NCBI GenBank assembly: GCA_049999805.1
Contig: JBNGIO010005423.1
Span: 1 to 48,750, forward strand
From: Folioceros fuciformis
Lineage: Eukaryota
Direction of reading: 5' to 3'
DNA length: 48,750 bases
Positions 2,935 to 38,929 of this stretch are shown piece after piece. A program made the position numbers and the translations under genes. Position 1 is the first letter of the stretch. The number at the start of each line of letters is the position of its first letter. The notes under the pieces were generated by a model that worked only from the letters and a program-made list of their open reading frames with translations, did not search any database and was not told the origin of the DNA.

Positions 2935-3200
2935 CGTAGGGTGGGAATGTTCCCTCCGTAGGTAGGGTACCTATTGCTCCCTTCGCAGGTAGGGTCCCTA
3001 CCATTCCTTCCCCTCCTCTCGTAGGTAGGTTGCCTACCCCTCCTTTCGTAGGTAGGTTGCCTACCCCTCCTCTAGTAGGTAGGTTCCCTATCCCTCCTTT
3101 CGTAGGTAGGTTCCCTATCCCTCCTGTCGTAGGTAGGTTGCCTACCATTCCCACCCATTGTCGTAGGTAGACAGCCTACCCCATTGCTGTAGGTGGGGTG
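2935..3200. repeat. Tandem repeat, ~8 x 30 bp with internal GGTAGG/CCTACC inverted motif
   Basis: CGTAGGTAGGTTGCCTACCCCTCCT(T)-type units; 10-aa periodicity (GGIGNLPTKG) in ORF 2732-3154. Confidence 0.85.
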
Positions 3201-4676: not shown

Positions 4677-5486
4677 TCATGCAGGAATATCCCAGTCGAT
4701 GTGCCTTCTGAGCACTGGAATCACCTCCTCTGGAGAGCTAAGTTGCGGTAGGTGTCCTTCTGTGGGGAGCACCTCCACGATTGTCTTCCCTCCCAGGGCA
4801 TGGCGCAGGTATTCCGACACCACGACGGGGACAGCCAAGTCCTGGCTGCTCTGCAGAATATGGCAGGGAACGCTTACCCTTGGACAAATGGGGCGCAGGT
4901 CGGACTGGAAAATGGTCTTCGCCACACTGAAGGCGATGTCAGGCCGGATGTTGAACAAGGTTCTGCTGAACTCCTGGACAGCCAAGGCCTCCATGTCAGC
5001 CCCCACGGCAAGGGGCGCAAACCCCGATACCCACGACTTGAAATTGGACTGCATGGCCACAAACAGCTGGTTCAAGTCCTCCTGCTCAAACCCCCCGAAG
5101 TAGTTCACATCGTTAAGGTAGCGAGGGGACGCCGAGAGCATGATGATCTTGGCAAACAAGTCGGGCCGCTCAACAGAGGCAAGGCACCCCACCATCCCGG
5201 ACACCGAGTGCCCCACGTAGATGCAGCTCTCCACCTCCAGCTCGTCCAGGATGGTGAGAAGATCGTCTGCGTAGCCGTGCAGCGTGGAGTAGCGAGGGAA
5301 GCTGAAGTAGTCAGGGTTAGTAGTTCCGGCCCCCATATTGTCAAATAACACCACCTTGTAGTCGTCCACCAAATGCGGCACCACGTGCTTCCACACTGAC
5401 TGATCCGTGCCGAAGCCGTGTCCCAGCATTACGATCTGCTCCCCGCTCCCCAGAATCCTCACATTATGCGCCTCCAGGATCGACAT
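4677..5486 (-). CDS. KAI2: KARRIKIN INSENSITIVE 2 (eu-KAI2) alpha/beta-hydrolase receptor, 269 aa, intronless
   Basis: Single ORF with [20 protein letters not shown] (Ser94), DLAVP (Asp216) and EGHLPQLS (His245); SPRY with Tyr123 and [15 protein letters not shown] are typical of KAI2 rather than D14. Confidence 0.95.
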
Positions 5487-5879
5487 CTTGGATCAGTCGC
5501 TCCTCCTCAGACACCCTCTCCACCAGATTCTACAACCAAGCTCCGCGGCGGAAACGAGAGTCCAGCAGAAGCGTGCGGCCCTAGCCGCAGGATGAAAGCT
5601 GGAGAGAAAGCACGTTCAGCGAGGGAAAGGGGAAGAATAAATCCCTTCTGTGATGCAAACGTGTTCATGTCTCTACGGGACTCTCTCTCTCCGTACGCAC
5701 CCACCTAGTTTATTATTCCCCTTTGATCTGATCCGATTTTATCTTATAGTATACTCCAACACGCATCCGATCTCAGAGGCTTGTTACCCCGCGGCTACGC
5801 CGCCGACCCTGACACGGGCCGATCTTTTACTGTAGCGTGACTCCAGTCGGGATCAGGCTGATGGTGCACAATCCTCCTG

Positions 5880-7470
5880 GGGAGTGGAAGCGTGTGCTGG
5901 ATGAGCCTGAGTTGGTACAGAGGCACTGTCAGTTGCTGCAGCGGCTACCTCCGGCCGCCTGGATTTGATGAACGGCTTCCCTGTTACTCGAATTTGATTG
6001 GGAGCTATTTTGTCTTGGCTGGTTGATAATTGATGTGTGATAGGCTCCATTCCCAGTGGATGGCAGGTAGCTAGGGCTTGTATGCAGAGCTGGGTGATGA
6101 GTTGAGTATGGCAGCTGCGAACATGGTTGTGCGCGGGAAATTGTTGTTGTGGCCTCATTTTTCGCAGGGGCCCCTAGAATTGATGCAGGCAAACCTGCGT
6201 GGAGAGCAGGCTCGCAAAAGTCACAACTTGAGATGCACATGGCCAGACCCACAGCTATCTCAGGTAATCGTGACTTCGGTAAACCTGCCCGGTTGGAGTC
6301 TGATCGTCTGCTCACCAAATTGTTTCCTTTTGGGTACTTCAACAGCGTGTGAATGATGGGACTGAAATCTCATCTTCTGCGCTGGATAGCTATCAGGGTT
6401 CCGGCATGCCCGCTTAGTGTACCCTCCAATTATCAGGTCAGGCAGTAAATTGATCAATGCAGTGTAGCACTGGCGGGTACAAATGCGGAAGGACGCTGTG
6501 GGACGGTGGTACTGGTGGCACTCACTTCATAACTACAAGTTACAGCGTATGGAAGGAGCATGCCATGGTTGTCGGGACTGTGCGAAGAAGAGTAGTGGCA
6601 GAAAGCTCGGAACTATAATATGAGAAAGGAGGTGGAACCCGTTTGACACAGGACGTGCGAAGGATAATGTTGTGTCTCAATTCCCATCGGCTACTGAGAT
6701 GCACTAGTGCATTCTTCTGTGGAGCCTAAGAAATGCCCATGGTTCAACTTCGACATTGTGAGCGGCGTCACAAACAGCTCGCGAATGTAAGTTGCTCTGA
6801 CGTTGTTTGAGGAAGTTAGTCTAAATCAGGAAGACGTTTTCTGTTCAACCAGCTGGTGTAGAGTTTAGGGATATCAGGGTGGACAGCAAGTTGAATGAGA
6901 AGGAAGGACCCGTCTGAAACATCTCGCGCTGTTGTCACGCAGAATTCTTCTGCTCGATGTTGTTAGAAGGCTGGTCGTCGGTATGGAGCACTGAAACTTT
7001 TGAACCAGACGCTCTCGCTTTTGTTGTCTTCTGTCTGGAGTAGTTGTGGGAGGACAACAAGCAAAGGCGGACAAAATGTTGCGAGAGACGTGTTTTTGAG
7101 CCCGAAGAGTTCAGAGAGGAAATTGTCATTGGGTGGCTAATCAGAGCATACAAACATTTGGGGAGGGTGAGATAGCGTGACGCCGAGTGGGCTGTATGCC
7201 CGTGTCGCGTAGCTTCTGTCTGCAATGGCTTGGAGAGGAGGAAGGATGGAATCTTTCACAGCATTTGACCTCTACAAAGACACGTTGAGGCTCATCCTGT
7301 CGCTATTTGGGGTCAGTAAACCGCCTCCGAGATAGCATCGATTCAGATACCATAAGTTGTGCTGTCACCTGCGCCAGCCAGACAGGACGGCCTTCAAGAT
7401 CAGCGCATGAATTGCCATCACGTGCTGCCTATTCTGAATTTGCTTCACGCTAAGTCTTCATCTTTTACTG
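5880..7470 (+). pseudogene. Decayed P-class PPR-like gene, convergent with CYP copy 1
   Basis: Frameshifted peptides resembling PPR motifs: FEPDALAF/CCLLSGVVVGGQQAKADKMLRE (~7000-7088), IGWLIRAYKHLGRV (~7128-7170), LLSAMAWRGGRM (~7213-7250), VALTLFEEV (6791). Many stops; the 5' limit is uncertain. Confidence 0.45.
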
Positions 7471-7481
7471 CTCCTCAAGGC

Positions 7482-9373
7482 TTACTGGTATAGGTGAGGA
7501 GGGAGACGAGGCACAGGAACCGTCAGGAGCGGCTTTGCGCGAGGCAAGGAGAGGCCGTCCTTCTCCATATCCAACTCATGGGGTGCCTGACCCTGTGGCA
7601 AGGCCCAATCGAAGCTATGCACCAGCCTTGCCAGCGAGTACTGTACCATGACAAGCCCCAAGTGGATACCAGGGCAAGCTCGTCTGCCGGAGCCAAAAGG
7701 GAGCAGCTGGAAGTGCTGGCCCCTCATGTCGATGTCGCTGTCGAGGAACCTGTTAGGCTGAAACTCGAGCGGATTCTCCCACCAGCCTGGATGCCGACCG
7801 ATGCTCCACACATTCACGAACACAGTGGTCTCGGCAGGAATATGAAAGCCTGCCACCTCGCAAGCCTCGCTGCTTGCATGAGGAAGCAGGAACCCCCCGG
7901 CAGGATGAAGCCGGAAGGTTTCCTTTACCACAGCCTGCAAGTAGTGAAGGTTTGGTAGATCGGACTCTGTGACTAACCTCTCTTTCCCTACCACCGCGTC
8001 CATCTCTTGGTACACCCGTTGCAGAACCTTGGGATTTCGCAGGAGCTCTGACAAGGTCCACTCCAATGTGTTGCTAGATGTTTCCGTGCCCGCTGTGAGC
8101 ACGTCCTACACATCATGTCAAGGTGTATTTCAGGGCACTCTGCACAAACTCTGGACTTTTAGTGCTGGTAAGACGCAGACTTGAGGAAATCGATTAGTAC
8201 GAGGAGGCGTACCAAGGCCAGTCCCTTCATGACATGTTCGCCCAAATGTGGACCACCGTCTTCTCCCGGCAGAGAAAGCAAGATGTCGAGGTAGTTTCTG
8301 GTTTCGTTCTCGTTTCTAGTATGCCTGTGTTCCTCCAGCACGCCGGACAGAAAAGAGTCAAATCTTTGGTGAACTCGGCGCATTCTCTTCTCATACTTCA
8401 TGATCCGATCCAGGAAGCCCAAGTACGGGATGACGTCTCCTATCAGAGACACTCCAGCTAGGAAGAACAGTTCGTCGATGACACTTTTGAATTCTGCGGC
8501 CAGGTCCTGCTCCAAAATTGGCACGAACAGAGAGACATGTCTGATGGCGAACACGGTGAGCGAGAGAGAGTCGTGAGTGGTTGGGATGATGAAGCACAAA
8601 CCCCTTCCTCGGCTTCGTTGGATTGAGAGGATTTGGTGTAGGAGAGGAAGGTCTTGCTCATTAATAAACGCGTAGCGACGTTCACGAGAAGGGCCCACGC
8701 TGTCTCCTGAAAGTTCACCGGCACCATGGGAGACGTCTTGCTGTCCTCCAGGATGGACTCGACCAGTCTGGACAGCTCCTCAACCCTCACATTCTGGAAC
8801 TCTTGGACCCGCTTTGCACTCAGCAGCTGCGCATTCGAAATTTTCCTTCGCTCCGCATTCGATGCCCGCAAATGACAGTATGCACCGGGATGCTGGACCA
8901 GGTCCCCCATTGAATCACACGATCATCATTACGAAATCAGGTGAAAGTGCGTCGACGACTGACCCGAGAAACCTCCAGTGCGCGCTGTAGGGGACAAATC
9001 CCATGGAGTTCTCTCCATATCCCAGAGCGTCCTTGGCAGTCATGTGGGGCCGGTTCGCGAACTCCCGGTCCATTGTCTTTAGCACTTCTTTGGCAATGTC
9101 CGGAGAGGAGACAACAATCGCCTGCTTCGAACCCAGCCGCAATGACACAATGGGGCCATAATTTTGGGCCAGGCGGTGTAACTCCTGGTGCGGAAGTTTG
9201 GAAGTCACAAAAATGAGAAGATTGCCGAACACTGGCCCCCCTGGAGGACCAGGCGGCAGCCTACTGCTGCTCTGCTTCCAACGTTGCAGCAACACAGCCA
9301 ACGCTATTAGTCCCAGCACCAGATACAACCACCATCCCGTGAGGGCGTGGCCAACTCCTTGTACCGTTCCCAT
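7482..9373 (-). CDS. Cytochrome P450, CYP71 clan (A-type), copy 1, 523 aa, 4 exons
   Basis: Exons 9373-8964, 8845-8602, 8506-8213, 8105-7482 (1572 nt, frame kept, GT-AG introns; first acceptor is a weaker AAG). TM anchor, LPPGPPG hinge, AGTETS I-helix, KETFR, FQPNRF and PFGSGRRACPG heme motif. Confidence 0.9.
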
Positions 9374-9554: not shown

Positions 9555-10690
9555 TCAGGAACCCCTCCTTTCGTAAAGAAAGATAGAAACCCATCCATCA
9601 AAAAAACAAACGGGAACCACCACCTCAAGGACACTCATACCAAAGAATCCGAGACGGAGATTTTTTTCTTTCAGAGATCGAATCCCGAACTGCTGACTGA
9701 GGGGCACCTATATGGAATACTGATCCAAACATTTTGGACGTAACACAGATGTGTCTATTTCAGTCATAGGGCACAAAGTAGGTGCTTCGATGGGGACATT
9801 TGTTTTGTGATAATATTTTATCCCTCACGTTCGGGTCCATCTCCACTCAATCATTCACTTTTTTTTAGTTAGGATTAGGGCTTGTGAGTTCAGCATCCAT
9901 CCTTGGGACCTCAGCGTTCACCGTCTGCTGTGAGCTGGCGGAAGAGCCCTCACTAGAGGACGCTCATCAAGAGGGAGACTACCCATCGTAGGCTCAATTG
10001 CGTGCAAAGCTGCTTTGCGTGTTACAGACCGACCTCGTGCTCTGCTCTTGCCAGTCCTGCTTAGCACTCTTCATGTTGGTATGCTGAGGACCCTGAGTAG
10101 GGCTTGTGCTGTGTGATGCTCTAGAGCTTGTCTTTGCCTTCAGGCTTGTGCGCATAATCGTTCTGCTGAACACGAAGCAAGCTCAGCATATAAGGAAGGC
10201 AGTTAGGAGCTCCACGCTGTGTACGTTGGAAGTACGCCATGCTACTGAGAGTAGCTGGCACTTAATGGTATATGATGATTATGAGACCGAACCTATAGTC
10301 GTATAAACCATGTTGGTTTAGTGGGAGTGTTAGGAATGAAACCCTAACATAGTTTATATCCTAGTTACTAGACTACAAGTTAAATTCATAACTCAAAAGA
10401 CACTTTTAGTTTTGTACTTAAAGGACACTTTCCTTTATTAATTAATGCTTTTCTTACAAGCACGCTACCGCATTTAGTAGCAAGTCCTAGGTGTGTCTGT
10501 AGTCGTAGCTGCGTCTTCAGTCCTAGGTGTGTCTTCAATCCTCGTATGCATAAGCTAAGCGACGTTGGTGGAGTGTCGATCCTGCACGGTGCTGCAACCT
10601 CCCCCCTCATCCCAGTGGCCTCCCGCCACTCGACTGCCTAGGCTCTAGGCAAGTGCATCCATGTTGCAGGTGTAGCGGCTGAGACGCAAG

Positions 10691-13600
10691 TTGCACCTGT
10701 GCAAGGCGAACATGATCAGGGAGAGAGAGGGCCGTACCCTGAGGCCCCTGGCTATCGTGCAACCAGGTAGCGATGTGTCTAGGCAGCAGTCGCCATCGAC
10801 ATCGATCCCAGTTGCCGACCCCACAATGCATAGGGCGTTGTCAGAAGTGCATCGCGGCAAGACAGCTCCCGCAGTTAGCCAAGCTGCGATTGTGGGCTCC
10901 ATTCGGAGGTTCAACAGTGCCATTTCTGGAGGGCCATCGACCTATGCGGGAGAGTGGGTGGGGAGCCCGTCCCCTCCAGATGGCCCTCGAGCCCATCGCG
11001 ATTGAGAGGCAAATCGACAGGATGAGCCGGAGTTTGCTTCCTTGCGCGTAGCTGCTGGAAGAATTCCAGTCACCCAACTGCGGAATCACGGGATCCAGGT
11101 GTGAGCACCGCAGAAACGGGAGCGTGCCATAGGCATGCCTGTGGGTGGTGTGTCCAGTCGTTAGTAGGAGAAGCTATTAAGAGTGCAAGTTCCTCTCAAC
11201 AAAGAGCATGCTCGAGTGGATGTCAGTGATGCGGAAGGTGGGCAGGTTGTGTGCATGGCCGGATTGGACTGCACCCAAGTGGAATTTAGCATCCTCGTTG
11301 GCGTGCCGTACAACAAGACTCCATTTGCAGAAGGTATAGTAGTTGCAGCCCTCGTCGCTACTGTGGAGGCCCTGTTTTGTATCCCACCAAATAGCCTCGG
11401 GCCAGGCTCCTTTGTTGTGCGCATGCCACCAATTGCCGCTCGCACGAACATTGCCGGTGTGGCCAGTGACATCCCAGTCATCTTCCCCCCAGGAAGCATT
11501 GCCTCACAGAGCGCAGATCGACTAGCCCAAATGTTGTACATCTGGGACATACACTCCTAGTTCACGCCACAGCAATTGTGCCACTACAAAGAGCGAACCG
11601 GGGTGCACCCAAAAGACGTCTATGTCTGGGACACCGAGAAGGGGGAGGGCACACACATAATCGAGGAGGTCGATTGCGGCAGGTCGATGGACGGCACGGA
11701 GGGGCGGGTTCTGGAGATAATCTTTGACAGTGCTGACGACTGCCCATCCTCTCCAGACCTTGGCGGTGGCATCTCGTAGTCCCCAGTGGCCTCCGACCAT
11801 GACCTATGGCCAGCCCCCGCGCCGCGCATCCCTCTTCCCGCCAGTGTTGCTGCCGCAATCGATGGGCCAGATGTTCTCACAAGGGAAGTGGCTGTATCTT
11901 ATGGGCACACTTCGCCGGCGCCTCGCCGCGAACATGACATGGGAGTGTTCGCCATGTATGTAAGTATCCAAAGAAGGGAACGAGAAGAGGCACTTCTCGC
12001 AACGTGGCAGTCAACGTTCCTGGCCATAGAGGAGTTGCGTAGCACCATGCCAAATGCAATGAAGGGGAAGAGCAAGGCAGGGACAAGCCACAACGGTGGC
12101 CGAACCGTAGTGAACGGTGCACTCTTCTTTGAGATCCTTGGTAGCCTGTAAGACAGAGCTGCAATGATGGACGAAGGGGATGCGGATGTCGGAGCCAATG
12201 CCCTCACCAAACTGCAACAGCTAATTGACATGGGAGCTAGCACAAATTCGGCACATGGGTTGGCCTGCATCTACCACCTCCAGCGCATGGATGGAATTGA
12301 AATGTTCGACACTGCCACAATATAAGGGTTTTGGCTGCGCATGCATCCCTGGCTGTAGTGTTGGGGCAACTAATGGGGAACATGGCTGGAGGGTTGGATC
12401 TTGGGAACATGGGGGCCGTAGAGCTGTTGGAGACGCGCCGCACCACAAGCCTTAGGTACGCTATGGATGAGGAAGAGATGTTGCAACTACACAGCTCACA
12501 TCTGGAGTGGGTAGCTGCAAAGTCCTTCAATCACACCCCTTCCACAGAGGCGGAGAGCGCCGGGGATGCGCTCCACTTGCTCCGATCTGCAAAGGAGGCA
12601 CATGAGGCTGCGCAGGCAGAGATGCAGAGGTTCTCAACCACGGAGAAGGCACTATCCGCCTTTTGCATCGAGCAAGAGCGCCGGTTCAAGGACATTTTCA
12701 CATTGCAAGTTGAGGCTGGCTTGGAGTGCCAGCAGCTGTTTGACAACTTCTGCCGATGGGAGGATAGATGAGGTCCATTCCCCCCCATGCGCATCTTGTA
12801 CGCCACGAGATACGGGGAGCAAGGGGATGTGCTGCACGAACTGGGGATAGTTGATGCGGGTGGGCTAACTCGGCACTGCATTAGTGAGGCGTGGAGGCAG
12901 TTCTGGGAGATGCCTGCGTTTGTGGATGCGGTCTTCGAAAGGAACGTGGCAGAGGGGGCAACCGTGTTCCATGTGAGCCACAGGCCATCGTCAGACGCAC
13001 TGCAACGATGCACGGTGAGGCAAACATGAAGTTCAGACGCAGTCCAAGCTGACGCTGACATCACTTGTCCATACCATATGCTTGTGTTGCTTGCAAGCTA
13101 TGTTCTTCGGGCACCTTGTGTGCCTGGTGCTGTCTTGTGGGTTGCAGGTAAGTAGGCCAATGTCCTTCGCCACCCTTGCACACGCCTTAGGCAGCCAGAG
13201 GGATGGAGCTCACAAACAGTGGAGGGATGTCGACAACGAGAAGGTTCTAAAGCAGGCATTCAAGGCCAACATCCGGGCTACCCATCCCCAACTCACGGCC
13301 ATCCTGAAGATGCTGAAGCGAGCTGTGCGAGAGAGCACAGTGCTGCAAGAGGCTGCCATTTCAGCCGCAGTCACTTTGACGGCTGAGATGCTGCCTGAAT
13401 TTTTCAAACACGTTGTTGAGCTGAAGCCAGCTCATGGCTTTGGGAAGCAGGTCACTCGCATAACACGGAAGCTCCTAGAGCAGCATGTGTTTTCTCGATT
13501 GCTACATGTTGCCAGCTGGGTGGGAGAGGGATTTTGGTATGTGGTGCACAACTTGGACAAGAGGGCCATGCTGCAGTGCCTAGGGGAGTGCACATTTGAA

Positions 13601-13957
13601 GCCGTTACTTGCTTTTTCACTACAACTCTAGGCTATGGGGCAGACACGTTTATGAGTTTAGTGTGGTTTAAGGCATGCATTCCCCAGCTTGTGGAGATGT
13701 TAAAGGAGACCATTCGAGGCATGATATTTAGGGATAGGGCCTACCTATACACCTTCGTTATCGATCGTGTGTATTTCTCTAAGGTGGTGACCGTAGTAGT
13801 GAGGCAAGTGCCGATGTGGGCTCATGGGCAGTTATCGCAAGCTAGAACTTCCAACTACTCAGGAACCCTCCTCCTTCCACTCTTTGAGTTAAAGGTAGTG
13901 ATGGCCGCCCGTTTGGGTGAAGCCATCCGCATGAACGCTGTATATGGGAACCCGTGA
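10691..13957 (+). pseudogene. Decayed ~1050-codon ORF of unknown identity with one predicted intron
   Basis: ORFs at 10691, 11183, 11576 and 11786 share one frame, split by TAG/TGA/TAA. After a frameshift near 12320, ORFs 12331 and 12787 share a frame. A phase-0 GT-AG intron at 13015-13147 joins them in frame to the last 270 codons, ending at 13957. Confidence 0.6.
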
Positions 13958-13969
13958 ACTAATTCAAAG

Positions 13970-15986
13970 GAGGGGAATGACGCCTAGCATCCCCCTACGC
14001 CAAGGGAGGGAGATGACGCACAGCATCCCCCTACGCCAAGGCTAGGGATTGACACCCAGCATCCCCCTACGCCAAGGCTGGGGGATGACGCCTAGCATCC
14101 CCCTACACCAAGGCTGGGGGATGACGCCCAACATCCCCCTACGCCAAGGCTGGAGGATGACGCCCAACATCCCCCTACGCTAAGGCTGGGGGATGACGCC
14201 CAGCATCCCCCAACGCCAAGGCTGGGGGATGTCGCCCAGCCTTCCCCTACGCCAAGGTTGGGGATTGACGCCCAGCATCCCCCAATGCCAACAGTGGGGG
14301 ATGACGCCCAGCATCCCCTACGCCAACGGTGGGGGATGACGCCCAGCATCCCCCAATGCCAACAGTGGGGGATGACGCCTAGTATCCCCCTATGCCAACG
14401 GTGGGGGATGACGCCCAGCATCCCCCTACACCAAGGCAGGGGGATAACGCCCAATATCCCCCTACGCAAAGGGAGGGAAATGACGCCCAACATCCCCCTA
14501 CGCCAAGGCTGGGGGATGACGCCCTGCATCCCCCAGCCCGCCAAGGCTGGGGGATGTCGCCCAGCCTCCCCCTATGCCAAGGCTGGGGATTGACGCCCAG
14601 CATCCCCCAATGCCAACAGTGGGGGATGATGCCCAACATCCCCCTACGCCAAGGGGGGATGACGCCCAGCATCCCCCTACGCCAAGGGAGGGGGATGACG
14701 CCTAGCATCCCCCTACGCCAAGAGAGGGGGATGACGCCCAGCATCCCCCTACGCCAAGGGAGGGGGATGACGCCCCTACGCCAAGGGAGGGGGATGACGC
14801 CCAGCATCCCTCTACGCCAAGACTGGGGATTGACGCTCAGCATCCCCCTACGCCAACGGTGAGGGATGACGCCCAGCATCCCCCTACGCCAAGGGAGGGG
14901 GATGACGCCCAACATCCCCCTACGCCAAGGCTAGGGGATGACACCCAGCCTCCCCCTACGCCAAGGTTGGGGATTGACGCCTAGCATCCCCCTACACCAA
15001 GGGAAGGGGATGACGCCCAACATCCCCCTACGCCAATGGTGGGGGATGACGCCTAGCATCCCCCTACACCAAGGGAAGGGGATGACGCCCAACATCCCCC
15101 TACGCAAAGGGAGGGGATGACACCCAACATCCCCCTACGCCAAGGGAGAGGGATGACGCCCTGCATCCCCCTACGCCAAGGTTGGGGGATGATGCCCTGC
15201 ATCCCTGTACGCCAAGGTTGGGGGATGACGCCCTGCATCCCCCTTCGCCAAGGCTGGGAGATGACACTCAGCATCCCTCTACGCCAAGGCTGGGGATTGA
15301 CGCCCAGCATCCCCTTACGCCAACGATGGGGGATGACGCCCAGCATCCCCCTACGCCAAGGTTGGTGGATGACGCTCAACATCCCCCTACACCAACAGTG
15401 GGGGATGACGCCCAACATCCCCCTACACCAACAGTGGGGGATGACGCCCAACATCCCCCTACGCCAACGGTGGGGGATGACGCCCAGCATCCCCCTACGC
15501 CAAGGTTGGTGGATGACGCCCAGCATCCCCTACACCAACAGTGGGGGATGACGCCCAACATCCCCCTACGCCAAGGGAGGGGGATGACGCTCAGCATCCC
15601 CCTACGCCAAGGGAGGGGGATGACGCCCAGTATCCCCCTACGCCAAGAGAGGGGGATGATGCCCAACATTCCCCCACGCCAAGGCTGGGGGATAACGCCC
15701 TGCATCCCCCTACGCCAAGGTTAGGAGATGACGCCCAGCATGCCCCTACGCCAAGGCTGGGGATTGATGCCCAGCATCCTCCTACGCCAACAGTGGGGGA
15801 TGACGCCCAGCATCCCCCTACGCCAACAGTGAGGGATGACGCCCAGCATCCCCCTACGCCAAGGGAGGGGGATGACGCCCAGCATCCCCTTATGCCAATG
15901 GTGGGGGATAATGCCCAGCATCCCCCTACACCAAGGGAGGGAGATAATGCCCAGCATCCCCCTACGCCAAGGTTGGGCGTGCGCCC
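13970..15986 (+). repeat. Tandem array of ~55 x 36-bp hairpin-containing units
   Basis: Consensus GGGGGATGACGCCCAGCATCCCCCTACGCCAAGGCT; GGGGGATG/CATCCCCC form an 8-bp stem; 12-aa periodicity in the ORF track. Confidence 0.95.
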
Positions 15987-16468
15987 AATTAGAAATAATA
16001 GCAGACCACGTTGGTTTTATACCAATATGGTTAGTCAGCTAAACCTAGCAGTTAGTATAGGTAGTTAGCTAGGCTAGCGAAAGGACACACTGTAAGATCG
16101 CTAGAGGAGCATGGTGAAGGAGAGGAGAGAAGAAAGGGAGGACATACTCTCACAAAAGGTCTCAATATGCAAGGGAGCTCAAGGGGGTATTTATACCCTC
16201 TAGAAGAACTCTCCCTATGAAGTTTCACAAGAAGCGCACAGGAAGCTGCGTAAGAAGCTTCTTACAGATTATCTTAAGCTAATCTAAACTAATGATACTT
16301 AACTAGACACTAATCTTAGACTAAACACATTAGTCCAAGCACATTGGGCTTTAATAACCCTACACACACCCCTTACAAGACCACCTATAAAAGCCCACCT
16401 ATGAACACACTTAATTTATTGTTAATATAACATCTTTGCTTTAGACGCTTCCACATGCAATTCTAACT
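15987..16468 (+). repeat. 5' LTR of the copia element (482 bp)
   Basis: Starts AATTAGAAATAATAGCAGACCACG, ends CATGCAATTCTAACT immediately before the PBS; both ends match the 3' LTR. Confidence 0.9.
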
Positions 16469-16998
16469 TGGTATTAGAGCCTCAGCTCCTACCATGGTCT
16501 CTAGGTTCAATGGCTAGACTTTATACGTATTATTACCTAGGTGAGCCATGGACCTTTGAAGCTCCATGTGCTTGCTTATGGTGAGAAGAAAGTGAGACGT
16601 TGTTTTGGATAGCAGATTGATTCTATCTGACCACAAAAAGGCAGCTACGATGAGGTCCTCATCGTCGCTTCCATGCGATTTAATAGAAGAGCTTTCTCAA
16701 GCCCCGCAATGAATTTAGTTTGTCTATATTTATAGAACTTAAATTTTTTGTCTTCTACTTTTATATAAGTTTAGGAATAGCAAGAAAATAATGTAGAAAA
16801 ATTAAAACTAAATTTTCTATTTATTTTCTTGCCTCCTTTCCTATCTACTTGCCTACTGGATTTGAATGCGTGTATGTAGCTTGGTTCTTAAGATGGATAA
16901 AAGGGGAGGGGGAACCTCAAAGGTTTTTCTCTTTTCTAACATCTATCCTCTTCACCATCCTACATTCTCTTCTTTCCTAGCCACAAATCTCCGCAAAC

Positions 16999-18070
16999 AT
17001 GGCAAGGAATCGTCGCTCTCAACCCCAATCACGTCGCATTGGAGAGGATAGGGAGCGATCTCATGGGCGCCCCAATCAACGGAAAGTCACTCGAGGTTAT
17101 GGCTTCACTCAAGCACCTCGCCATTACCAGATGTTCGGCGAGAATTGGGTGGATGCCCTCATCCATACCTTGCAAGATCAAGGGTGGTCTCTCCCATCAG
17201 GATTCCATTGGATTGGGCGGAGAGCAATGAGGATTTGATAGTCATCGAATCTTGGCAAATACGGCATTCATCTCGAGAGGGGAAGCGCGAGATCTGTACA
17301 GGCCCCCAGGGCACCTCATTTTCTGGAGTCGGCGTCGACCAGGGAGACGCACTTTCACCAATCTTCCCGCCGGCCACCATCTCCACTGACCTCGGAGATG
17401 CGGGAGTGGGAGGCGCGTAAGGGGGAGGCGGGCAATTCACCCTAGGCGGTTCGTTGTCAGTTGCTCCCGCTGGCGAACCGTTATCCAACTTAAGTTGGAT
17501 TACGGGCGCCCCCGAATGGGTGCCACCCATTCAAAGGAACGACGTGTCCATTCCACGGAACAGTGCAACCGTTCAACAGAACACCACAACTGTTCAACGA
17601 AATGGCGTGACTGTTCAACGAAACGGCGCGCCCGTTCCGCAAACGGGTGTCACCCCCGTTACGTCGAACGGGGCCTCTAATACTTTTTCTTATGCTCTTG
17701 ATAATTTTTTTTCGGGCTCTTTTCCAGCAGAAACAGGTGGCGATTTTGGTGGCAATCCTCCTCAACTCCAACGGTTTTTGGCTATGCAAAGTGTGCCTCC
17801 TACACACTATTTCAACACTGGGACATCGTCAATATCTGCCGTCGTAACTATAAAGGAGGAACCAAGATCATCCTCCCCTACTTTCGAGACTTTGGAAGCT
17901 GCCTACAAGGAGTTCAAGTACAATGAGGACCAAGCCCAAGCTTCTACTCAAGAGCACGCTCTCTTCATTATCAAAACCTCTGGTAGTCGATCACACATAT
18001 CAGCACTAATCTTGTGAATGTTGTTGAAACTGTTCGGCAAATTGAGACAAGCTTTGATAAGGCGAGTGTT
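16999..18070 (+). pseudogene. Extra decayed ORF between PBS and gag inside the copia element
   Basis: aaacATGG start at 16999 (MARNRRSQPQ...); after a frameshift, ORFs 17145-17420 and 17454-18017 are in one frame; 21-bp (TVQRNGV-type) repeats near 17555-17650. Confidence 0.45.
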
Positions 18071-18322
18071 TTGAAAAACAATCTTGGAGCACAGGATTCA
18101 GCTGATGCATGGTAGGTGGCTGGTGTGAGTAAGATTGCTTTGAACTCCCCTAGAAAATTTTTTGCTCACACTACATTTGTGTTTTTCTGAGCCTTGTGTC
18201 ACAATACGTTGCTCGTTCACACAATTGTGGAGCCAAGGATTTGACCATGTCAAGAGGCACTCCACCACCACCACCACCTCCGCCATCTCTGGCTCTTGTG
18301 ATTAATGGTATGAACGTCTCTA

Positions 18323-21300
18323 TTGACTTTAAAGAGAGAGATCGGTTCAACGAGACCAAATATGAGATTTGGTCTCGACGCTCTCAATTTGCGCGATCTT
18401 CTCCCACTGGTGGAGGGTGTTTCCCCAAAGCCTACCGCACCTCAGTCAACGGTTGATGCTTGGCTCAAGCTGGATCGTCAAGCCATGCAAATGCTGGTTT
18501 CTTGCCTTGATGAAACCACCTTGCATCACACCGATGGTGCAACTACTTCAGCAGAGGCCTGGAAGCAGATCAATGACATCTATCAGTCAACGAATGTGAT
18601 GACTTTGGTCACCGTTCGACAAGAGTTCTACACTCTTCGGATGCAACAAGGTGATAGTGTTGCCCATCACGTGAGCCGATTCAAGTATCTTCGGGCACAA
18701 TTGGCTGCATTGGGGACTACAATGTCTGAATTTGATGCTGCTGTCCAGCTGCTAGCTAGCCTTCCGGCTAGTTATCAGTCGTTCGTCTCTTCCCAAAACC
18801 AGTTGGTCCAAATTTCATAACAAGCAGTGGCGACTGGTGGACAATCCACGCTAACTATGTCCTAGCTTGCTAGCGCGCTCCTTCAGGAGGAGGCATTTCG
18901 CTTCAACTCTAGCACATCTAAACATGGTGGAGAGCGAGTGATGTTTGTGGCTCGAGGACGGTCACAAAATCAACAACAGAAGAGAGGGACTAACCCCCGG
19001 AGAAACAACAACTCCCGCACATCAAAGGCTGCTCCTTCTGCCGCTTCCTCCTCCAAGCCTACAAAATGTCAAGGGACATGCAATTGGTGTCAGTCACCCG
19101 GCCATTGGGAGCGGGAGTGCAGAAAGAAGCAAGCCGGTGAGGCCAAGCGTGAGATCAAGACAGCTAATACAGCTGTCTTTTCCAAGGCCAAGACCCAGTC
19201 CAAGTCTGAGATTGCTTTAACCGTGTGCCAAGCTCCTTGCCATGACTCAGCAGGACTTGTATCGAGATAAGTTGCCCTCCTTGGCCAAGACACCACCTCT
19301 TTGTGAAGCGTGTGTGCTTGCCAAGCAGCGGAGCTCTCCCTACTCAAGTCTTCCTGCTCATAGGGTTTCTCAGCCTTTGGAGTTAGTTCACGTAGACTTG
19401 TGTGGACCTCTCCCTGTTACTTCTTTAGGCGGAGCACGCCATTTTATGACGATAGTGGATGATTATTCCCGCTACTCTTTGGCGTACCCGCTTTGTCTCA
19501 AGAGTGACTCCTTTGCTGTGTTCTCACCTTTTGTTTCTACGGCCGAGTTGCACACTGGCTGCAAGCTACGGTGCATCAGATCCGATAATGCGGGAGAACT
19601 CAACAACCATTAGTTCAAAGACTAATGTGAGGCGTGTGGGATCTTGAGACAATTCACTGTTCCCTACACTTCTGCTCATAATGGCATTGCTAAGAAGGCC
19701 AATGGCGATTTTATGGCCATGGCGTGGGCTATGTTAGCCTAGCCTCGCTTGCCTAAGTCTTTTTGGGCTGAGGCAATCTCTACGGCAGCCTACATCAAGA
19801 ATAGGTTACTGACCAAGTCCGTTGTTGGCCGTACTCCTTTCGAGTGTTGGCATGGGTACAAGCCTTTGATCACCCATTTGCACGTCTTTGGCTCTCCTGC
19901 TTATGCCTATGTCCCCTCCCAGCTTCGTGATAAGCTTTCTTCCCGAGCACGGAAGCTAGTGTTTGTGGGTTATAGTGAAGATCGCAAGGCGTACAAGTTG
20001 ATGGACGTGGCTACTTGGACTCTTGTTTATGCTCGAACTGTCACTTTTGACGAGGCTAGTATTCTCTCTTCTGGTCTGCTTCTGGATGAGGAGGATGATG
20101 CAGCTTCTATCCACCATAGTCCCCGCTCTACTGACGGCCTTTCTGTTCACTTTGATTTAAGCCCTTCGTCTTTTCCTGTTGGTGTTGTTCTTGTCCCTCC
20201 CATGGCTCCTTTACCTCAAGCAGTTCCAGATCTTCCAGTTCCTGCTCGAGAGGGGGAAGATGATCGGCCCATGGATGATGCACCAGGACAGCTGCTTCTG
20301 GATTTGGGGGGCATACATGATGGAGCGGCTCCAGATGTTCCTTTACCGCCTCCATCACCCCCGAGATCTGAAGTCGTTGTTCATGAGCGTAGTTACCCTA
20401 CACGTTAGAGACTACCAAGACACCTCTAGAATAAGAAGCCATTTGACTTGGAGTTCAATCAAGCTGGTTATACTGATCTTGATCTAGCCACCTATTCTTT
20501 TGCTATGAGTTCTGTAGTTTTTGAGGGAGATCCTCTCACACTTCAAGAAGCATGTGCTAGACCTGAGGCTAACAAGTGGAAACTGGCTGTTGACGATGAG
20601 TATAACTCTTTAGTCAAGAATAACACTTGGGCGTTAGTGGACCTACCCCCAGGAAGGACTAATGTCAAGTGCAAGTGGGTACTCAAAACAAAGTTTCAAG
20701 AGGTTGAGCCCCGCATACGTTATAAAGTGAGGTTAGCGGCCAAGGGCTATAGTCAGAAAGAGGGAGTCGACTATCAAGGCGATCAAGTCTAGTCACCTGT
20801 CGTTAAAGCAGCTTCGATAAGGATGCTCCTTGCTTTATGTGCTGAACTTAACTTGGACATCTGTCAGCTGGACGTTTGTACAGCTTTCCTCTATGGTCAC
20901 TTGGAAGAGGAGATCTAAATGGATCAACCTGAGGATTATGAGGATAAGAGATTCCCACATAAGGTGTGTAAACTTCTTCGTTCTATTTATGGGCTCAAAC
21001 AAAGTCCTCGACTGTGGTACAAGAGAATTGACTCTTATCTTAAGAAGATAGGCTTCGTGCAAAGCCAAGCAGATACTAACCTATATGTGCTACAAAAGGA
21101 CAGCTCGCTTGTTTTGATAGCGTTATACGTGGATGACTTAGTTATCCCCAGTAACAATGTGGATTTGGTTAACCAGATCAAGGTTGATCTTAGCAAGGAT
21201 TTTGAAATGAAAGATCTGGGTCAAGTTAAATACATTCTTGGAATGCATGTACACAAAGACACTGGAGCAATCTACCTTCATCAAGGTCGATATGTAGCCG

Positions 21301-21994
21301 GGATGCTCAAGAGGTTCAACCTGGAGAATGCACGAGCAGCTACCACCCCAGGTGTTGTTGGTGCTAAGCTCTCCTCATCTTCTTGTCACAGTCTGACGAA
21401 GAGAAAAAGGAAATGGAGAGTGTACCCCATCGTATGGCGGTTGGTACCCTCATGTTTCTAAGCATCTAGACACGACCAGACATATCTAATGCTGTTAATG
21501 CAGTTGCCCAATTCTCTGAGAACCTAGGAAGGGATCACTAGGTAGCTTTTAAAAGAATTATGCGGTATCTCAAGGGCACTCCTAACTATAGTCTTTGCTA
21601 CAAGCCTAGTGGCAAAAGGAGTCTACAAGTGACTTGCTATGTTGATGTAGATTGGGCTCCCGATGCAGACACCAAAAAGAGTCTATCGGCTCATTGCTTC
21701 CTCGCCGGCTCTACTGTTGTAAATTGGTCTTGTAAGAAACAAGCCTCTATATCTTTATCTTCCACGGAGTCAGAGTACAAAGCACTCACAGAAGCCACAA
21801 AGGAGGCTGAGTGGGAAAGGAAGTTATGCGAAGACTTGGGTATGCAACAAGCAAGACCTACGCTTATTACTTGTGATAATATGTCAGTCATCGCCTTGGT
21901 TTCTAACCCTGTGTTTCACGCCCGCACTAAGCACATTGAGATTCAACATCATTATGTTAGAGATGCTGTTGCGAGGGGCTTAGTGAAGATATAG
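18323..21994 (+). pseudogene. Copia gag-pol remnant (gag, zinc knuckle, integrase, RT, RNase H; protease deleted)
   Basis: Gag QEFYTLRMQQGDSV; CNWCQSPGHWERECR; LELVHVDLCGP, IVDDYSRY, IRSDNAGE; KCKWVLKTK, YGLKQSPRLW, LYVDDL; SLSSTESEY, CDNMS, ARTKHIEI. Multiple stops and frameshifts. Confidence 0.93.
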
Positions 21995-22296
21995 TATGTA
22001 TCAATAGATGATAATTGTAGCTATGTGACGCTAGACAAATCACTCGTTTGGTGAGGCTCTTGCGTTTGATCCATCATCTACGAAGATAACTTAAGTTGAA
22101 GACTTGCTTCTGCTCTGGTCATGACTGGTGCTCTACTGCGTGAGTTGCTGTCGACGACAGACTCAACGTCAGTAGGTGCAACTAGAAGATGTGACAACCA
22201 AGCCGAAGATGGTAGCCTTCAGTGGCAATTTCTTTTAGTAGTGATATCCTTTTCTTAGTTCGGAGCTCTTAGAACAGCAACGTGTCTAAGAGGGAG

Positions 22297-22485
22297 AGTT
22301 AGAAATAATAGTAGACCACGTTGGTTTTGTACCAATATGGTTAGTCAGCCAGACCTAGCAGTTAGTATAGGTAGTTAGCTAGGCTAGCGAAAGGACACAC
22401 CCCTTACGAGACTACCTATGAACACACTTAATTTATTGTTAATATAGCATCTTTGCTTAAGACGCTTCCGCATGCAATTCTAACT
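22297..22485 (+). repeat. 3' LTR of the copia element (189 bp, internally deleted)
   Basis: AGTTAGAAATAATAG...GCAATTCTAACT; lacks ~280 bp that lie between two ACACAC microhomologies in the 5' LTR. Confidence 0.9.
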
Positions 22486-22700
22486 GCCCAGCATCCCCCT
22501 AGAGATGATGGATGCGCGCTCAGCGCCCAGCATCCCCTACGCCAAGGTTGGGCGCGCGCCCAGCATCCCCTACGCCAAGGTTGGGCGCGCGCCCAGCATC
22601 CCCTACGCCAAGGTTGGGCGCACGCTCAGCATCCCTCTAGAGATGATGGGTGCGCGCTTAGCATCCTGCGAGGCACAAGGCTGGGCGTGTGCCCAACCAT
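22486..22700 (+). repeat. Continuation of the tandem array (33-bp GCGCGC-containing variant)
   Basis: GCGCCCAGCATCCCCTACGCCAAGGTTGGGCGC x3 plus degenerate units; resumes exactly after the 3' LTR. Confidence 0.85.
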
Positions 22701-23189
22701 GCCTCTGGCACACGCTGGCCACGCGCCCAAGATCGTGCCTCACACAATGGTGGGCACGCGCTCACTATTGTGTAAGGCATTCCCTACGAGATTGTTGGGG
22801 GCGCGCCGCATCCTGTGAGGGAGATGCTAAGCGCGCATGCTGAGTATCCCCCTCCGTCAAGAGATAGGGGGAGGCACAAGGGTGGTGGGGGCAAAGTGGC
22901 CTCCATGTACAATGGTATTGTGTAATGTAGCTTCGATTGCAATTGTGTAATGAAGAGGGCACCTACCATTGAAACCCCCACAACGAGTAATGTTCATGGC
23001 AGTAGTAGAGACCAAAGTGGGAAGGTGGGTTAAGAATAAAAATATGTCAAAACTTTCAAGTTCCAAGTTGGTGCAACCACGACCTTCCAAGCAAAAGCAA
23101 TGGAAAACAAACATACCTCGAGCAAACGCGAACATAGTGGACTTGAAGCCAACCCCCCCTACTTAAGACCAATTTTTCTAAAAGGAGGT

Positions 23190-24100
23190 TTGGCCATTAT
23201 ATATAGCCAGGCCCTAATTAAATTAAATAAACTAAACTAATTAGCTAGATACGAATCGACAGATTCCTATCAACACGACTTAGGGTCGTGTCCCAACGTC
23301 CAACGGTCGTAGGCCACGGGACACCACCAACGGGTTCTCCCGCGCCTGTATAAACCGCCACACGGCCCTACAAAAATATTCATTTATTCGTTTTTCTTTC
23401 CTCTCGATCACCTGATCTCAGTGTTCTCGATCCTGTCGATCGTCATGGTATCAGAGCCTGATGGACTCTGCCGGGCTTCCAATTATCTGTGCAACCTGCA
23501 ACAGCGCAAATTGCGTCAAGAACTTGCTGCTCGGATGCATGCATGCTCGGATCTGCATATTTGGTGATGTCATCTTGATGCATGTCCTTTGTATGGTTTT
23601 CCTATAGGTCACCTGGCTAAGCCATCAGCAGGAGAAAGTGGTATAAAGGAAACCAAGCTTTGCTTCGTTTCCTTTATACCACTTTGTCAGCGATGTCCTC
23701 GGGCCTAGGTGCTGCGTTCTTCCAGCACACCAAAAGGGCTGTGAGCCGGAGCGCATTAAGCAAGAACGCTACCGGAATGGGTCAAAACATGCCTGCATCA
23801 TGTACGATACCAACAATAATGGACCTCAACCAGCGCGCATCTATCACACTACATCAAACAATGGGACTCAACTTGCAAGCCTCAATTCTGATTGGTGCAA
23901 CAACGACTAACTACATGAATCACGACAAGCAGAGGACTGTCGTGCAAATCAGCAAGGTGGCAACATTTGGGGAGTCCTAGGAAGGACAATCCCGGATATG
24001 CCTTGTCCTAGCACTCTTGCAATTGAAGAACAACTCCATCAAAAAGAAAGTGAGTCATGGTCATAGGAGCAAGTTTGAGATGATGGAGCACCTACGGCTT
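23190..24100 (+). mobile_element. Second LTR retrotransposon fragment (LTR end, tRNA-iMet PBS and leader)
   Basis: ...GATCGTCA (23445) directly followed by TGGTATCAGAGC (23446-23457); TATA-like TATAAA at ~23349; purine run AAAAGGAGG at ~23180. No pol is recognisable. Confidence 0.65.
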
Positions 24101-26013
24101 CCCCCCAAAACTGTTTTCCTACGCTACGAGAGGGAATCATGAAAGTTGTAGTGTAAGCAACTGGGCCAGCTCAGGGTACATGCGTTGGCTGGGAGTTCCT
24201 CCATTACACTTCTGCACCTTTCGGAGGGGCACACAGAAAACCAGCTCCGTATGTATGACACACAAGTACAAGGCCTTTCTCCTATAGGTATGGCGCTCTC
24301 CAAGTGCAACTTCGAAGACTAACTTCCTTGCCCCTACCCTCCTAGTGTTAGTACCTATTAGTGTTCACATTTGCTGGGTTCTACCATTTTTGTAGCGACT
24401 TCAATCTAGCTACACCCTAATCACTACGTTCCCAATTTAATGAAATAAAAGGGAATACTAGCCATTATCCATATTGTGCTAAGGGACGAACGGAAAGCTA
24501 TGAATACAAACGTTCCTTACCTTCCTTCTTGTGCTTGAGCGTAGTAGTGGAAGTAGTATCAGGAGGCCCGGAAGTCTTAATTGTAGAATGAACAGGTTAC
24601 CAGTCCCGACCTCCCTAGCATATTACTGTCAGGAATCAAGCAAGCATGAAGCATAACCTTTCATATGGTCATGGCTTCGGGTCCAGTAATCTAAACCCTC
24701 ATGGCCCGTGGTACATCACCAAGGACTCGTGGCCATGCATTTGGTTATGAAAACATCCCACCTGTACACAAAACGGGTCCTCATACATCAGCATCTACTA
24801 CCCAATCTTTACTCCCTCTCCCTATCATACCCTACGTATCATATACTAGCCCTCCCTTGCATAGCCATGCCTAGCCAACCTAAGCAACTCCACGACTGAC
24901 CTCCACCTTCGGAGTGAGTTGCTGCACCCTCTCCTTCAAGTTGCCTAGCCTAGTATGCATGCTGGCCTTTAGTGAGTTCAGGCACTCCATGAGCCCTCCT
25001 GGCAAGCTTTCCACAATTGTGTCCCCATTGGTCCACATGTTGAAAGGAGTGGGGGAATATGAAGATTGTATATGCTACTAAAGTGAGCACAGTGATGTGG
25101 GCATGTAGAACACGAGCATATAGGGGATACCCTTCCATATATTCCCATAATGAGTAGGTTTCAGAGCAAAATTGGATGAGAGGGTGGCCAATGTGTGAAT
25201 GGCTTGTGCATAAGGGAGCATCACGAAAGGGCATCGTGAAGTCCTACACATCCTAGACCCTAGTATGCGAGGGAGGAGGCAACCAAGAAGGTCGAAGGCA
25301 TTGCCCTTGGTGGTCCAGAGATGGTGAACCTCATGAGCTTTGGAGGAAGTTGGTGTTAGGAGATTGCCATTGTATCACCATACAATGTCACGTTGGATAG
25401 GTGGTGTGGAATGTGGTGTAGGTGCATTGTTGCCTTAATCTTCTAGTGGTAAGAATATGACTTTGTTGTGAACCTATAAGGGCAGATGTAATTGATGAGG
25501 TGGCTAATTCTATGCCAAATTGTGAAGCTATCACTTGCATAGAACGCTTGAAGCAGGTTGGCAAAGCACTATAAATGTGGACAAAAAGGGTTGTAACAAG
25601 GAACTGTGCGTATGGATGGCAACGGCTCCAAAGTCTTGACCAAATTAAACAGCCCCAAATTCTTGGGGAGGCATGTTGATGTGGGCTATGGAGGAAATGC
25701 ATGTGAACAAGGATGAAGAGGAATTGCTTGGAACAAGAGTGTAACAAAGGGGTTAGTGTAAGGAGCACCAACACACAAAGTACAGAAAACACAATGGCTA
25801 AGGCCTAGGAATTGCATAATGTTGTCGAAAAAAGACAAAATTGGATGATAGGGTTGGACACAAACTCCGGGCTTTTTCTACGCCAAATGCTGTAGTGTGG
25901 AACGTCCATTGTGCACATACTTGCAAAGGGGTAGACCTCACATTGCACGATGTACGAGGAGAAGAGGTAAAGAGCTCATTTCCATCAACAATAGGGACAG
26001 TGGATGGACACGC

Positions 26014-27673
26014 TGACATGTGCATAAGAAAAAAAAGTATAACACCCTTGGGTTTGTCACCATCGAGACCCCTAGATGGCGCCCTACAACCGAATGGGGC
26101 AGATTTGTGACGTCCAAAACATTGGACCATACATTGCCGTGCAAAAGTTTGTGTTACATATGGCATCGCCGTATCGGTATTCCATGGAACATACCCCAAG
26201 ATGCCTATCTACCCTTGTCTGCTTTAGGAATCACCAACAAGTGCCCAGTGTAGCCATACAGGTACCCGAAGGTTGCACATGGTTTACCAAGGCCTAGCCT
26301 CACGACGAGCACGACATCTTGCAGAACACTTTATACACAAACAAGAATGAACCCTTGGTAGGGAAGGGGGCAATGTCTGCGTGAACACAACTACGGTAGA
26401 GTGTGGACCCACCAGGCATGGAGAATGAATTGCAAACCACATGTGCTTTGTATGTACCCGACCCTCAACCCAAAACCACCCTGCCATGTTGTTGCCAATG
26501 TTGGGTAGGTCGTACAAACGGGTCCACCATAGGAGTCATGGACAATGAACTGCAAACGCCATCTTGCCGTAGATCAGTGATGGTAGCCCTACCCGCCAGT
26601 GCTCCTATACATGCACACCCACCAACCCATGCTCCAATGGTGCCGGTGTGTATGGAATTGTGACGAATGTAAGTCCAAATAAGGCATAAGGGCCCATGTC
26701 GGTGCCACTGTGGCCAACGGACAAAGGCGAATAAACAAGACTCTACCAACATGCTGGACTGTAGTGCATACAAAAATAAAAGCGGAAATGACAAGAAAAA
26801 CATGAAATGGGCCGTAGGGTCCATGCCCATGACCATTCCGCGGAAGGAACGTACGCTTCAGCAGGTTGTGTGGTGGAGTGGGGAATACACGGAGATGACC
26901 CTGAGGCGGGGCAGTGGTGTGGATGGAGGCGAGAGAGACGTATGCATCCAAGGCTAAACGCTGGACGCTGGCGTGCGCACCCAAGGCTGAACACTGACGT
27001 GTGCATAAGAAAAAATAGTATGACACCCTTGGTTTTGTCACCATCAGGACCCCTAGATGGCCCCCTATGATCGAATGGGGCAGATTTGTGACGTCCAAAA
27101 CATTGGACCATATACCACCGCACAAAACTTTGTATTACCATATCCACTTTGCATCACCATATCCATATTCCATGGAACATACCCCAAGATGCATGTCTAC
27201 CCTTGTTTGCTTTAGGAATCACCAACAAGTGCCCAGTGTAGCCATATAGGTACTCGAAGGTTGCACACGGTTTACCAAGGCCTAGCCTCACGACGAGCAC
27301 GACATATTGCAGAACACCTTATACACAAACAAGAATGAACCCTTGGTAGGGAAGGGTTTCTACACAAACAAGAATGAACCCTTGGTAGGGAAGGGTTTAT
27401 ACACAAANNNNNNNNNNGGGAAGGGTTTATACACAAACAAGAATGAACCCTTGGTAGGGAAGGGGGCAATGAGTGCGCGAACACAACTATAGTAGAGTGT
27501 GTACCCACCATGCATGGAGAATGAATTGCAACCCACATGCTACTTTGTATGTACCCGACCCTCAACCCAAAACCACACTGCCACGTAGTTGCCAATGCTG
27601 GGTAGGTCGTGCAAACGGATCCACCATAATAGTCATGGGCAATGAAATGCAAATGACATCTTGCCGTAAATCA
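26014..27673. repeat. Pair of ~560-bp diverged direct repeats (26014-26577 and 26995-27673)
   Basis: Both run TGAC(A/G)TGTGCATAAGAAAAAA...GGCAGATTTGTGACGTCCAAAACATTGGACCATA...ATCTTGCCGTA(G/A)ATCA; the second copy has a 39-bp unit amplified around an N gap. Confidence 0.85.
27408..27417. other. Assembly gap (10 N)
   Basis: Run of N inside the 39-bp TACACAAACAAGAATGAACCCTTGGTAGGGAAGGG repeat. Confidence 1.
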
Positions 27674-29060: not shown

Positions 29061-29070
29061 CCTCAAGGCC

Positions 29071-38588: not shown

Positions 38589-38929
38589 AAATCATAAGGC
38601 GCAGGTGAAGACGTCGTTGCAGCAGAGCCAGAATGGGTAGCAGCACATCTGATGAGCGGTTCCTGTAGCTGATACCGAAGGCCATCTTCGGAAGCATTTC
38701 AGTTTAGCGAGTGAGCTGAGAACTTGAAGGAATTATGCGCACATTGTGCAGCACGCAGTGTGAAAGTTGTTCTCATCCTGGTATCAGGTAAACAAACAAA
38801 TCGACAAATGTGCACCGGTTTATGATCCTATTTCCATATTATTAACCGGAGCTGAACCCGCCGTTGATCAAGAAGACTGGTGTTCTGAGGTCAGTCCACC
38901 CATTGCTCAGCAGCCGGGGTGGCCTCAAT

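Follow-up and report, generated by a model that had tools for sequence, protein, structure and literature searches.

Architecture of the locus

The window analyzed here is a 48,750-nt stretch of the 87-Mb Folioceros fuciformis genome, taken at its full length (contig C5423), in which Pfam searches recognized plant-type neighbors, namely P450s, an alpha/beta hydrolase, and a fructose-1,6-bisphosphatase. Tandem P450 paralogs (7031-9352, 28648-30976, and 38100-40120; one pair is 82% identical) lie around a degenerate mobile element (Table 1), the left end of which is located about 340 bp 5′ of the start codon of the first P450. Other host-like exons, of alpha/beta hydrolase, fructose-1,6-bisphosphatase, and RmlD type, are found at 4680-5492 (-), 40929-41567 (-), and 43627-44034 (+), and a 27-bp tandem array occupies 2943-3178.

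Table 1. Features of the decayed element in the window and the evidence on which each assignment is based
Feature	Position	Strand	Basis
GingerRoot/IS3EU left end, starts TATGGAATA	9711..9928	+	72% to C6406 element end; many loci genome-wide; end motif
Nested LTR retroelement, 3′ remnant (internal part, polypurine tract, 155-bp LTR at 10328-10482)	9932..10482	+	Sharp boundaries common to other loci
18-bp tandem repeat upstream of the gene	10483..10542	+	Also present in the C6406 element
First exon(s) of the HECT gene	10712..13014	+	Collinear with copies on C6165, C5869, C4681, C3188, C6247, and C6148
Phase-0 GT-AG intron, 133 nt	13015..13147	+	Donor in 7/10 and acceptor AG in 8/10 copies
Last exon, divergent HECT domain with C-lobe	13148..13957	+	Profile, Pfam, PDB, and fold matches
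Catalytic position, Ser and two extra residues in place of the HECT cysteine	13850..13858	+	Alignment
36-bp minisatellite, imperfect palindrome, about 56 units (56.3), private to the window copy	13965..15986	+	Tandem repeat; genome matches
Nested Ty1/copia in the array end	15987..22485	+	Pfam gag, integrase, and RVT_2; LTR pair; junctions; missing from sister C5806
Array remainder past the copia insertion	22486..22690	+	Repeat matches
Nested LTR with primer-binding site	23179..23527	+	C4054 donor element, matched at both LTRs
Block common to GingerRoot copies on C6406, C6148, C6379, and C5806	25290..25555		Sequence matches; no Pfam match
Right TIR-like end, ends ...TATTCCATG	26076..26186	-	76% to C6406 terminal repeat; inverted match to left end

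The element begins with TATGG at 9711, its right ends read CCATG, and without its insertions it measures about 9 kb. The left end pairs over about 80-110 bp, at about 70-76% identity, with the right TIR-like end and with a second copy of the latter at 27057-27174, and many genomic matches stop at the 26186-end base. Because subfamily matches on C5806, C5775, C4373, and C6038 continue beyond this TIR, the true right end may be located further out. A direct duplication (26010-26576/26991-27673) includes the right TIR-like end. No target duplication was found in a search around the window copy, and Pfam scans detected no transposase in it.

Three retroelement insertions are nested in the element. 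The leftmost remnant occupies the position at which a related element on C6406 (described below) has its transposase, and the same type of LTR is followed by a primer-binding site at loci L115, L117, and L119. A coding-like stretch at 9910-10306, which an earlier note on this DNA had listed beside the gene as being in the same frame, belongs to this unrelated LTR retroelement, as indicated by its sharp boundaries elsewhere. The LTRs of the copia element appear to be AG...CT-ended, not TG...CA-ended, with a duplication that measures 4 bp (GCCC) or 5 bp (GCCCA) according to where the cut is placed. A copia relative on C6165 likewise reads ...CTAACT before its primer-binding site, and the 5′ LTR in the window carries a 270-bp insertion that is found at other loci. 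The possibility that the gene was an extra (env-like) gene of an LTR retrotransposon was rejected, since the copia element behind the array is a later insertion, missing from C5806.

Reading frame and decay of the window gene

The earlier note had described a gene relic of about 1,050 codons with one frameshift and a frame-restoring GT-AG intron, and this structure was recovered: the path from an ATG at 10712 to 13957 comprises 1,037 codons, with nine stops, one frameshift, and one intron. Eight stops interrupt the first frame, which runs from the ATG to about 12330 (TGA at 11003 and 11102; TAG at 11162, 11165, 11558, and 11777; TAA at 12149 and 12323), while the second frame, from the frameshift at about 12327-12333 to 13014, has a single stop (TGA at 12769) and the 269 codons of the last exon have none. 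Upstream of the intron, the layout consists of a low-complexity N-terminus, a conserved block (about 11050-11635), a helical middle, and a motif resembling the start of a HECT N-lobe. The nine stops compare with 43 ± 6 (minimum 25) in 1,000 shuffles; since the path was picked after the frames had been seen, homology is the real test, not this control.

Seven of the nine stops could be aligned to codons of a related copy. At 11558, 11777, 12149, and 12323 the related copy has a codon with C as its first base, at 11003 and 11102 it has arginine codons, and at 12769 it has GGA, a transversion, so that the C>T origin previously suggested does not hold for all of the stops. Silencing by methylation, proposed at the same time, agrees with the comparison of the window with its 88% identical sister on C5806: C>T/G>A changes were found at 33% of CG (23/70), 31% of CHG (25/81), and 6% of CHH (23/381) sites, an excess that is the pattern expected of methylated plant repeats. 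The window copy is dead, as it has accumulated stops and a frameshift, has lost its catalytic cysteine, has no transposase, and carries three nested retroelement insertions.

A divergent HECT domain in the last exon

No domain had been recognized in this gene from its sequence, and single-sequence searches with the window exon returned nothing in Pfam (no HECT match included), the protein database, the PDB, or the ESM Atlas (top score, 0.78). Only a profile of genomic copies succeeded in detecting homologs. Built from 21 last-exon pieces, it retrieved 15 proteins at E ≤ 0.001 among 1.84 billion, all 15 of which exceed the Pfam HECT cut-off and two of which are full-length ligases. The HECT family (PF00632) was also matched directly by 7/21 family pieces (best E, 1.1e-11), with matches beginning at model position 161-183 of 306. 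In a PDB sequence search, HECT-type ligases accounted for all 26 matches at E ≤ 1, although these E-values were weak (best, 8.5e-4). An AlphaFold model had a pLDDT of 73 overall, 77-97 in the C-lobe, and <50 at 118-162; when used in Foldseek, HECT entries made up 40/40 of the matches listed, nine of them at E ≤ 0.001, and the C-lobe superposed with an rmsd of 2.2 Å over 112 columns. The catalytic cysteine is retained in all eight other genome copies that cover the column, as well as in the 13/13 outside homologs in the alignment. Taken from sequence profiles and a predicted fold, these results show that the last exon of the window gene encodes a divergent HECT E3 ubiquitin-ligase domain.

In the exon before the last, a DAGG..R..ISEAWRQFW stretch resembles the start of a HECT N-lobe, but matches of this upstream exon to the HECT N-lobe were not significant. 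The N-terminal 550 residues had no match in the PDB or NCBIfam, leads in the ESM Atlas were under 0.9, and structure prediction for the N-terminal block gave a pLDDT of 35. Pfam also gave a match to SAT at E values of 0.001-0.02, which, being weak and under the cut-off, was attributed to chance.

A multicopy gene family with signs of purifying selection

The last exon has 26 matches on at least 19 contigs of the genome, at 33-75% identity, and falls into two main subfamilies that are about 40% identical to each other. In copies on C6165, C5869, C4681, C2292, and C6148, the N-terminal, middle, and last-exon segments follow one another as in the window; none of the copies seen is intact. A GTGAG donor located 133-137 nt ahead of the acceptor is present in 7/10 copies and the acceptor AG in 8/10, the intron being kept among copies whose protein identity is only about 40%. 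Two outside homologs start at an exon boundary equal to the start of the window's last exon, a hint of shared gene structure as judged from sequence; a metagenome scan with an outside homolog found no locus.

Across all pairs with a value, dN/dS ranged from 0.05 to 0.88, and many deep dS values are saturated, making the ratios rough. Between lineages, values were 0.28 (window-C6148), 0.20 (C5806-C6148), 0.36 (window-C6373), and 0.05-0.14 (deep-lineage pairs within the second subfamily), indicating that the lineages evolved under purifying selection (0.05-0.36 for the cited pairs). Between the window and its sister on C5806 the ratio was 0.88. The combination of low values between lineages and a high value for this pair indicates that selection acted on the gene while the elements were active and that both of these copies have since drifted.

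Two further observations concern gene structure. In the second subfamily (L059:8750-8830), an extra in-frame 81-nt GT-AG stretch precedes a VEAG motif and is missing from the window's subfamily, possibly reflecting intron gain or loss between element lineages. The piece of the gene at 11629-12217 recurs with the same sharp boundaries, at 84% identity, on C1314, C1919, and C6237, and in pieces on C6382, and is apparently carried by another repeat. Past the sister element, an open frame of 208 codons (L006:7710-8333) contains a CxxC motif and has no Pfam match. We take this frame to be reminiscent of an RPA-type OB fold.

Association with GingerRoot/IS3EU transposons

Downstream of the gene copy on C5869 lies an integrase-core transposase (PF24764) with WHMD/RSD/RIE motifs, which occurs in 31 places on 23 contigs of the genome. 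Such a transposase is located within 5 kb of the HECT gene in 8/20 gene loci, compared with about 0.3% expected by chance per locus (30 loci × 10 kb/87 Mb). It is downstream on the same strand on C6165, C5869, C2292, C5252, C6247, and C3188, and divergent on C6406 and C5977. In the four copies with intact 3′ ends (C6165, C5869, C2292, and C5252), the gene is located about 1-1.5 kb upstream of the transposase. Viewed from the transposase, the gene adjoins it on 6/22 PF24764 contigs examined; the other 16 have no gene in the DNA examined, which for five of them comprised 1.5-kb flanks only.

The boundaries of the transposon could be drawn at C6406:26524-34600, an 8,077-bp element with TA...TA termini, TATGGAATA ends, and a perfect 6-bp target duplication. 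Its parts follow the window's order: end, transposase, 18-bp repeats, 5′ end of the gene, and the block matching 25290-25555. The end is 72% identical to window positions 9724-9907, and the gene is represented by its 5′ 450 bp only, at 87% identity to the window. The two ends of the C6406 element have a common stretch of only about 10 bp. TA...TA termini of the type TAYGG..CCRTA are present at both ends on C6406, C6373, and C4167, with one mismatch in the 6-bp duplication on the latter two; the brute-force scan for target duplications also yielded 13 other one-mismatch pairs, several of which are probably due to chance. None of the TSD-bounded elements seen carries the whole HECT gene and the transposase together. 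On C4167, a TSD-bounded element of 5.2 kb carries no more than the transposase, and the gene is therefore dispensable in cis.

GingerRoot elements are DNA transposons described in Selaginella lepidophylla (Cerbin et al. 2019, PMC6839031). When compared by eye with a sequence printed there, the transposase exon is identical at 41/87 ungapped positions; used as a query, this exon had no match in the protein database. IS3EU and GingerRoot form one lineage with 99% bootstrap according to Kojima and Bao (2023, PMC10045372). Taken together, these results lead to the main reading, held at a probability of roughly 0.87: a cut-and-paste DNA transposon of the IS3EU/GingerRoot type carried the relic as its second (accessory) gene, which encoded a protein of roughly 1,040 residues ending in a HECT E3 domain. 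The earlier proposal of an accessory gene in a mobile element is retained, and the element, which had been regarded as unclassified, is assigned to IS3EU/GingerRoot from its transposase and TA...TA ends.

Miniature elements of 1.1-1.2 kb with GingerRoot ends (C6373:399151-400240 and C1263:319-1516) were also observed; of the HECT gene they retain just the 3′ end, with the cysteine motif kept. A metagenome scan with the transposase alignment yielded one 3.5-kb contig, in which a GingerRoot-type transposase (L193:1345-1900) is nearly intact, 53% identical, and has the same intron after the first catalytic Asp; no HECT gene lies within its 3.5 kb.

The 36-bp array

The earlier note had described the hairpin array as coupled to the gene and as starting about 12 bp past it; it in fact starts 7 bp past the stop. 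Such proximity could mean that the product of the gene acts on the array in cis, as with the target arrays of VANC proteins, or that the array serves the element as a signal for replication or recombination. The units pair as hairpins (z = -3.35 for a two-unit piece and -0.96 for a single unit), and other copies bear other tandem repeats (59 bp on C5806 and 56 bp on C2292). However, the array follows only 1 of the 11 gene ends checked, and all 18 exact unit matches genome-wide are in the window contig, so the array is not coupled to the gene. The sister on C5806 has only a 30-bp trace of it. Because arrays may be collapsed in a short-read assembly, the counts of it elsewhere are lower bounds. 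A cis-acting role is thus quite improbable, and the array would instead have arisen locally, by slippage, from a short palindrome of which the sister copy has one or two units.

Origin of the gene

Under the main reading, the gene belongs to the transposon. It might instead be Pack-type cargo, a captured piece of a host UPL ligase that drifts neutrally; the window copy has no transposase, and gene fragments are reported in 22/77 GingerRoots, mostly in elements without the DDE region (PMC6839031). Potential donors exist, since host-type HECT matches are found on six other contigs and comprise 18 of the 25 Pfam HECT matches in the genome. Captures reported in that source are 84-1,654 bp long and 79-98% identical to their parents, whereas the gene here spans 3.2 kb, and DNA searches with it returned repeat-like copies only, with no parent in this range of identity. 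Against the 14 host HECT loci it gave no blastn match, and protein matches were confined to the surroundings of the cysteine motif. The dN/dS values between lineages likewise argue against neutral drift. The six element copies group together (94/90) among unnamed divergent HECTs in a 27-row C-lobe tree, and the two host pieces used stand apart (96/96); because the alignment is short and long-branched, and an ordinary, long-branched ligase (P0015) falls on the element side, the tree indicates distance from the host genes, not origin. Capture of a host fragment is therefore very improbable.

An endogenous virus gene, which the earlier note had entertained, or a gene of a different kind of element that just happens to be nested in GingerRoots, would suit the heavily nested locus with its three retroelement insertions and the N-terminal half without a domain match, and is nevertheless extremely improbable, given that Pfam scans of the gene and its flanks found no viral hallmark or retroelement domain in the gene, the spliceosomal intron is conserved, the gene has a fixed place upstream of the transposase in four copies, and its 3′ end lies inside the miniature GingerRoot-ended elements.

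Proposed function and significance

HECT ligases accept ubiquitin from an E2 enzyme onto a cysteine of their own and pass it to a substrate. By analogy with this chemistry, the HECT protein of active elements would have accepted ubiquitin at its cysteine from an E2 of the host and then transferred it to a substrate chosen by its N-terminal part. The preferred reading of its purpose, held tentatively, is that the substrate would be a factor by which the host silences or restricts the element, making the ligase a counter-defense enzyme. This type of substrate is favored because, where a role is known or proposed for a transposon's second gene, that role is often to oppose silencing, as for the VANC proteins of VANDAL MuDR elements, whose anti-silencing function has been shown (PMC13547354, PMC12730594), and as has been proposed for TET/JBP proteins of fungal transposons (PMC12730594). 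Second in likelihood, and somewhat less probable, is that the ligase would regulate the element's own transposase or the post-insertion complex. Extending the counter-defense reading, and more speculatively than the reading itself, the second gene of IS3EU/GingerRoot may ancestrally be a HECT gene, retained in lineages from animals through to land plants, and its product may destroy a conserved host silencing or restriction factor as a form of ubiquitin-based counter-defense.

The window copy, being dead, matters only as a marker. The presence of a dead ligase gene in GingerRoot/IS3EU suggests that these elements carry their own tool for marking proteins for destruction. For a transposon superfamily that has been little studied, the analysis identifies the second gene in plants and shows that selection maintained it in several element lineages. 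Should host silencing indeed be what the ligase targets, it would represent a new kind of transposon counter-defense, and knowing its substrate would lead to a host factor restricting DNA transposons. In addition, divergent HECT/UPL-like pseudogenes in annotations of seed-free plants may be transposon genes; here, element copies account for 7/13 contigs with a Pfam HECT match.

Comparison with known systems

With the HECT E3 ligases (PF00632; E6AP, HECTD3, Smurf2, HUWE1, and plant UPL), the element family has in common the predicted C-lobe fold, the LPxxxTCxxxLxLPxY motif, and an aromatic residue four from the C-terminus. In contrast, the element protein is only 12-19% identical to solved HECTs, contains no recognizable UPL N-terminal domain, and, in the window copy, lacks the catalytic cysteine.

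The likeness to VANC is that of a second, element-encoded protein of host-derived type that serves the element. The two differ in superfamily, fold, and chemistry, and the role proposed here for the ligase is an inferred one.

GingerRoot elements and the present family have in common an integrase-like DDE transposase, TA...TA termini, a 6-bp duplication (perfect on C6406), and heavy methylation, and the size of the window element without insertions is within the 4-13 kb reported for GingerRoot (PMC6839031). IS3EU/GingerRoot TIRs measure about 100-150 bp, with which the pairing of the window ends agrees. The available portion of the GingerRoot report describes only the transposase and captured host fragments, whereas a selected, intron-bearing second gene is proposed here; the words HECT and ubiquitin do not occur in its main text or supplement text.

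IS3EU elements of rust fungi have TAYGG..CCRTA ends (Kojima 2025, PMC12730594), the same type as in the present family, and IS3EU has been described as encoding two proteins (PMC10853768). HECT is likewise not mentioned in PMC10853768, PMC13547354, the text of bioRxiv 2021.09.26.461848, the supplement of PMC12730594, or PMC10045372, and the literature searched, which lay outside Repbase family reports and subscription journals, linked no HECT gene to IS3EU/GingerRoot. GingerRoot in seed-free plants was already known; the HECT second gene is the new point, no paper on it having been found. Fungal IS3EU families carry extra enzymes, including an alpha-kinase and a TET/JBP dioxygenase in rusts (PMC12730594), and the extra genes of Styx are GATA, CCHC, and DUF3577 (PMC10853768). 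No HECT ligase is among these extra genes named in print.
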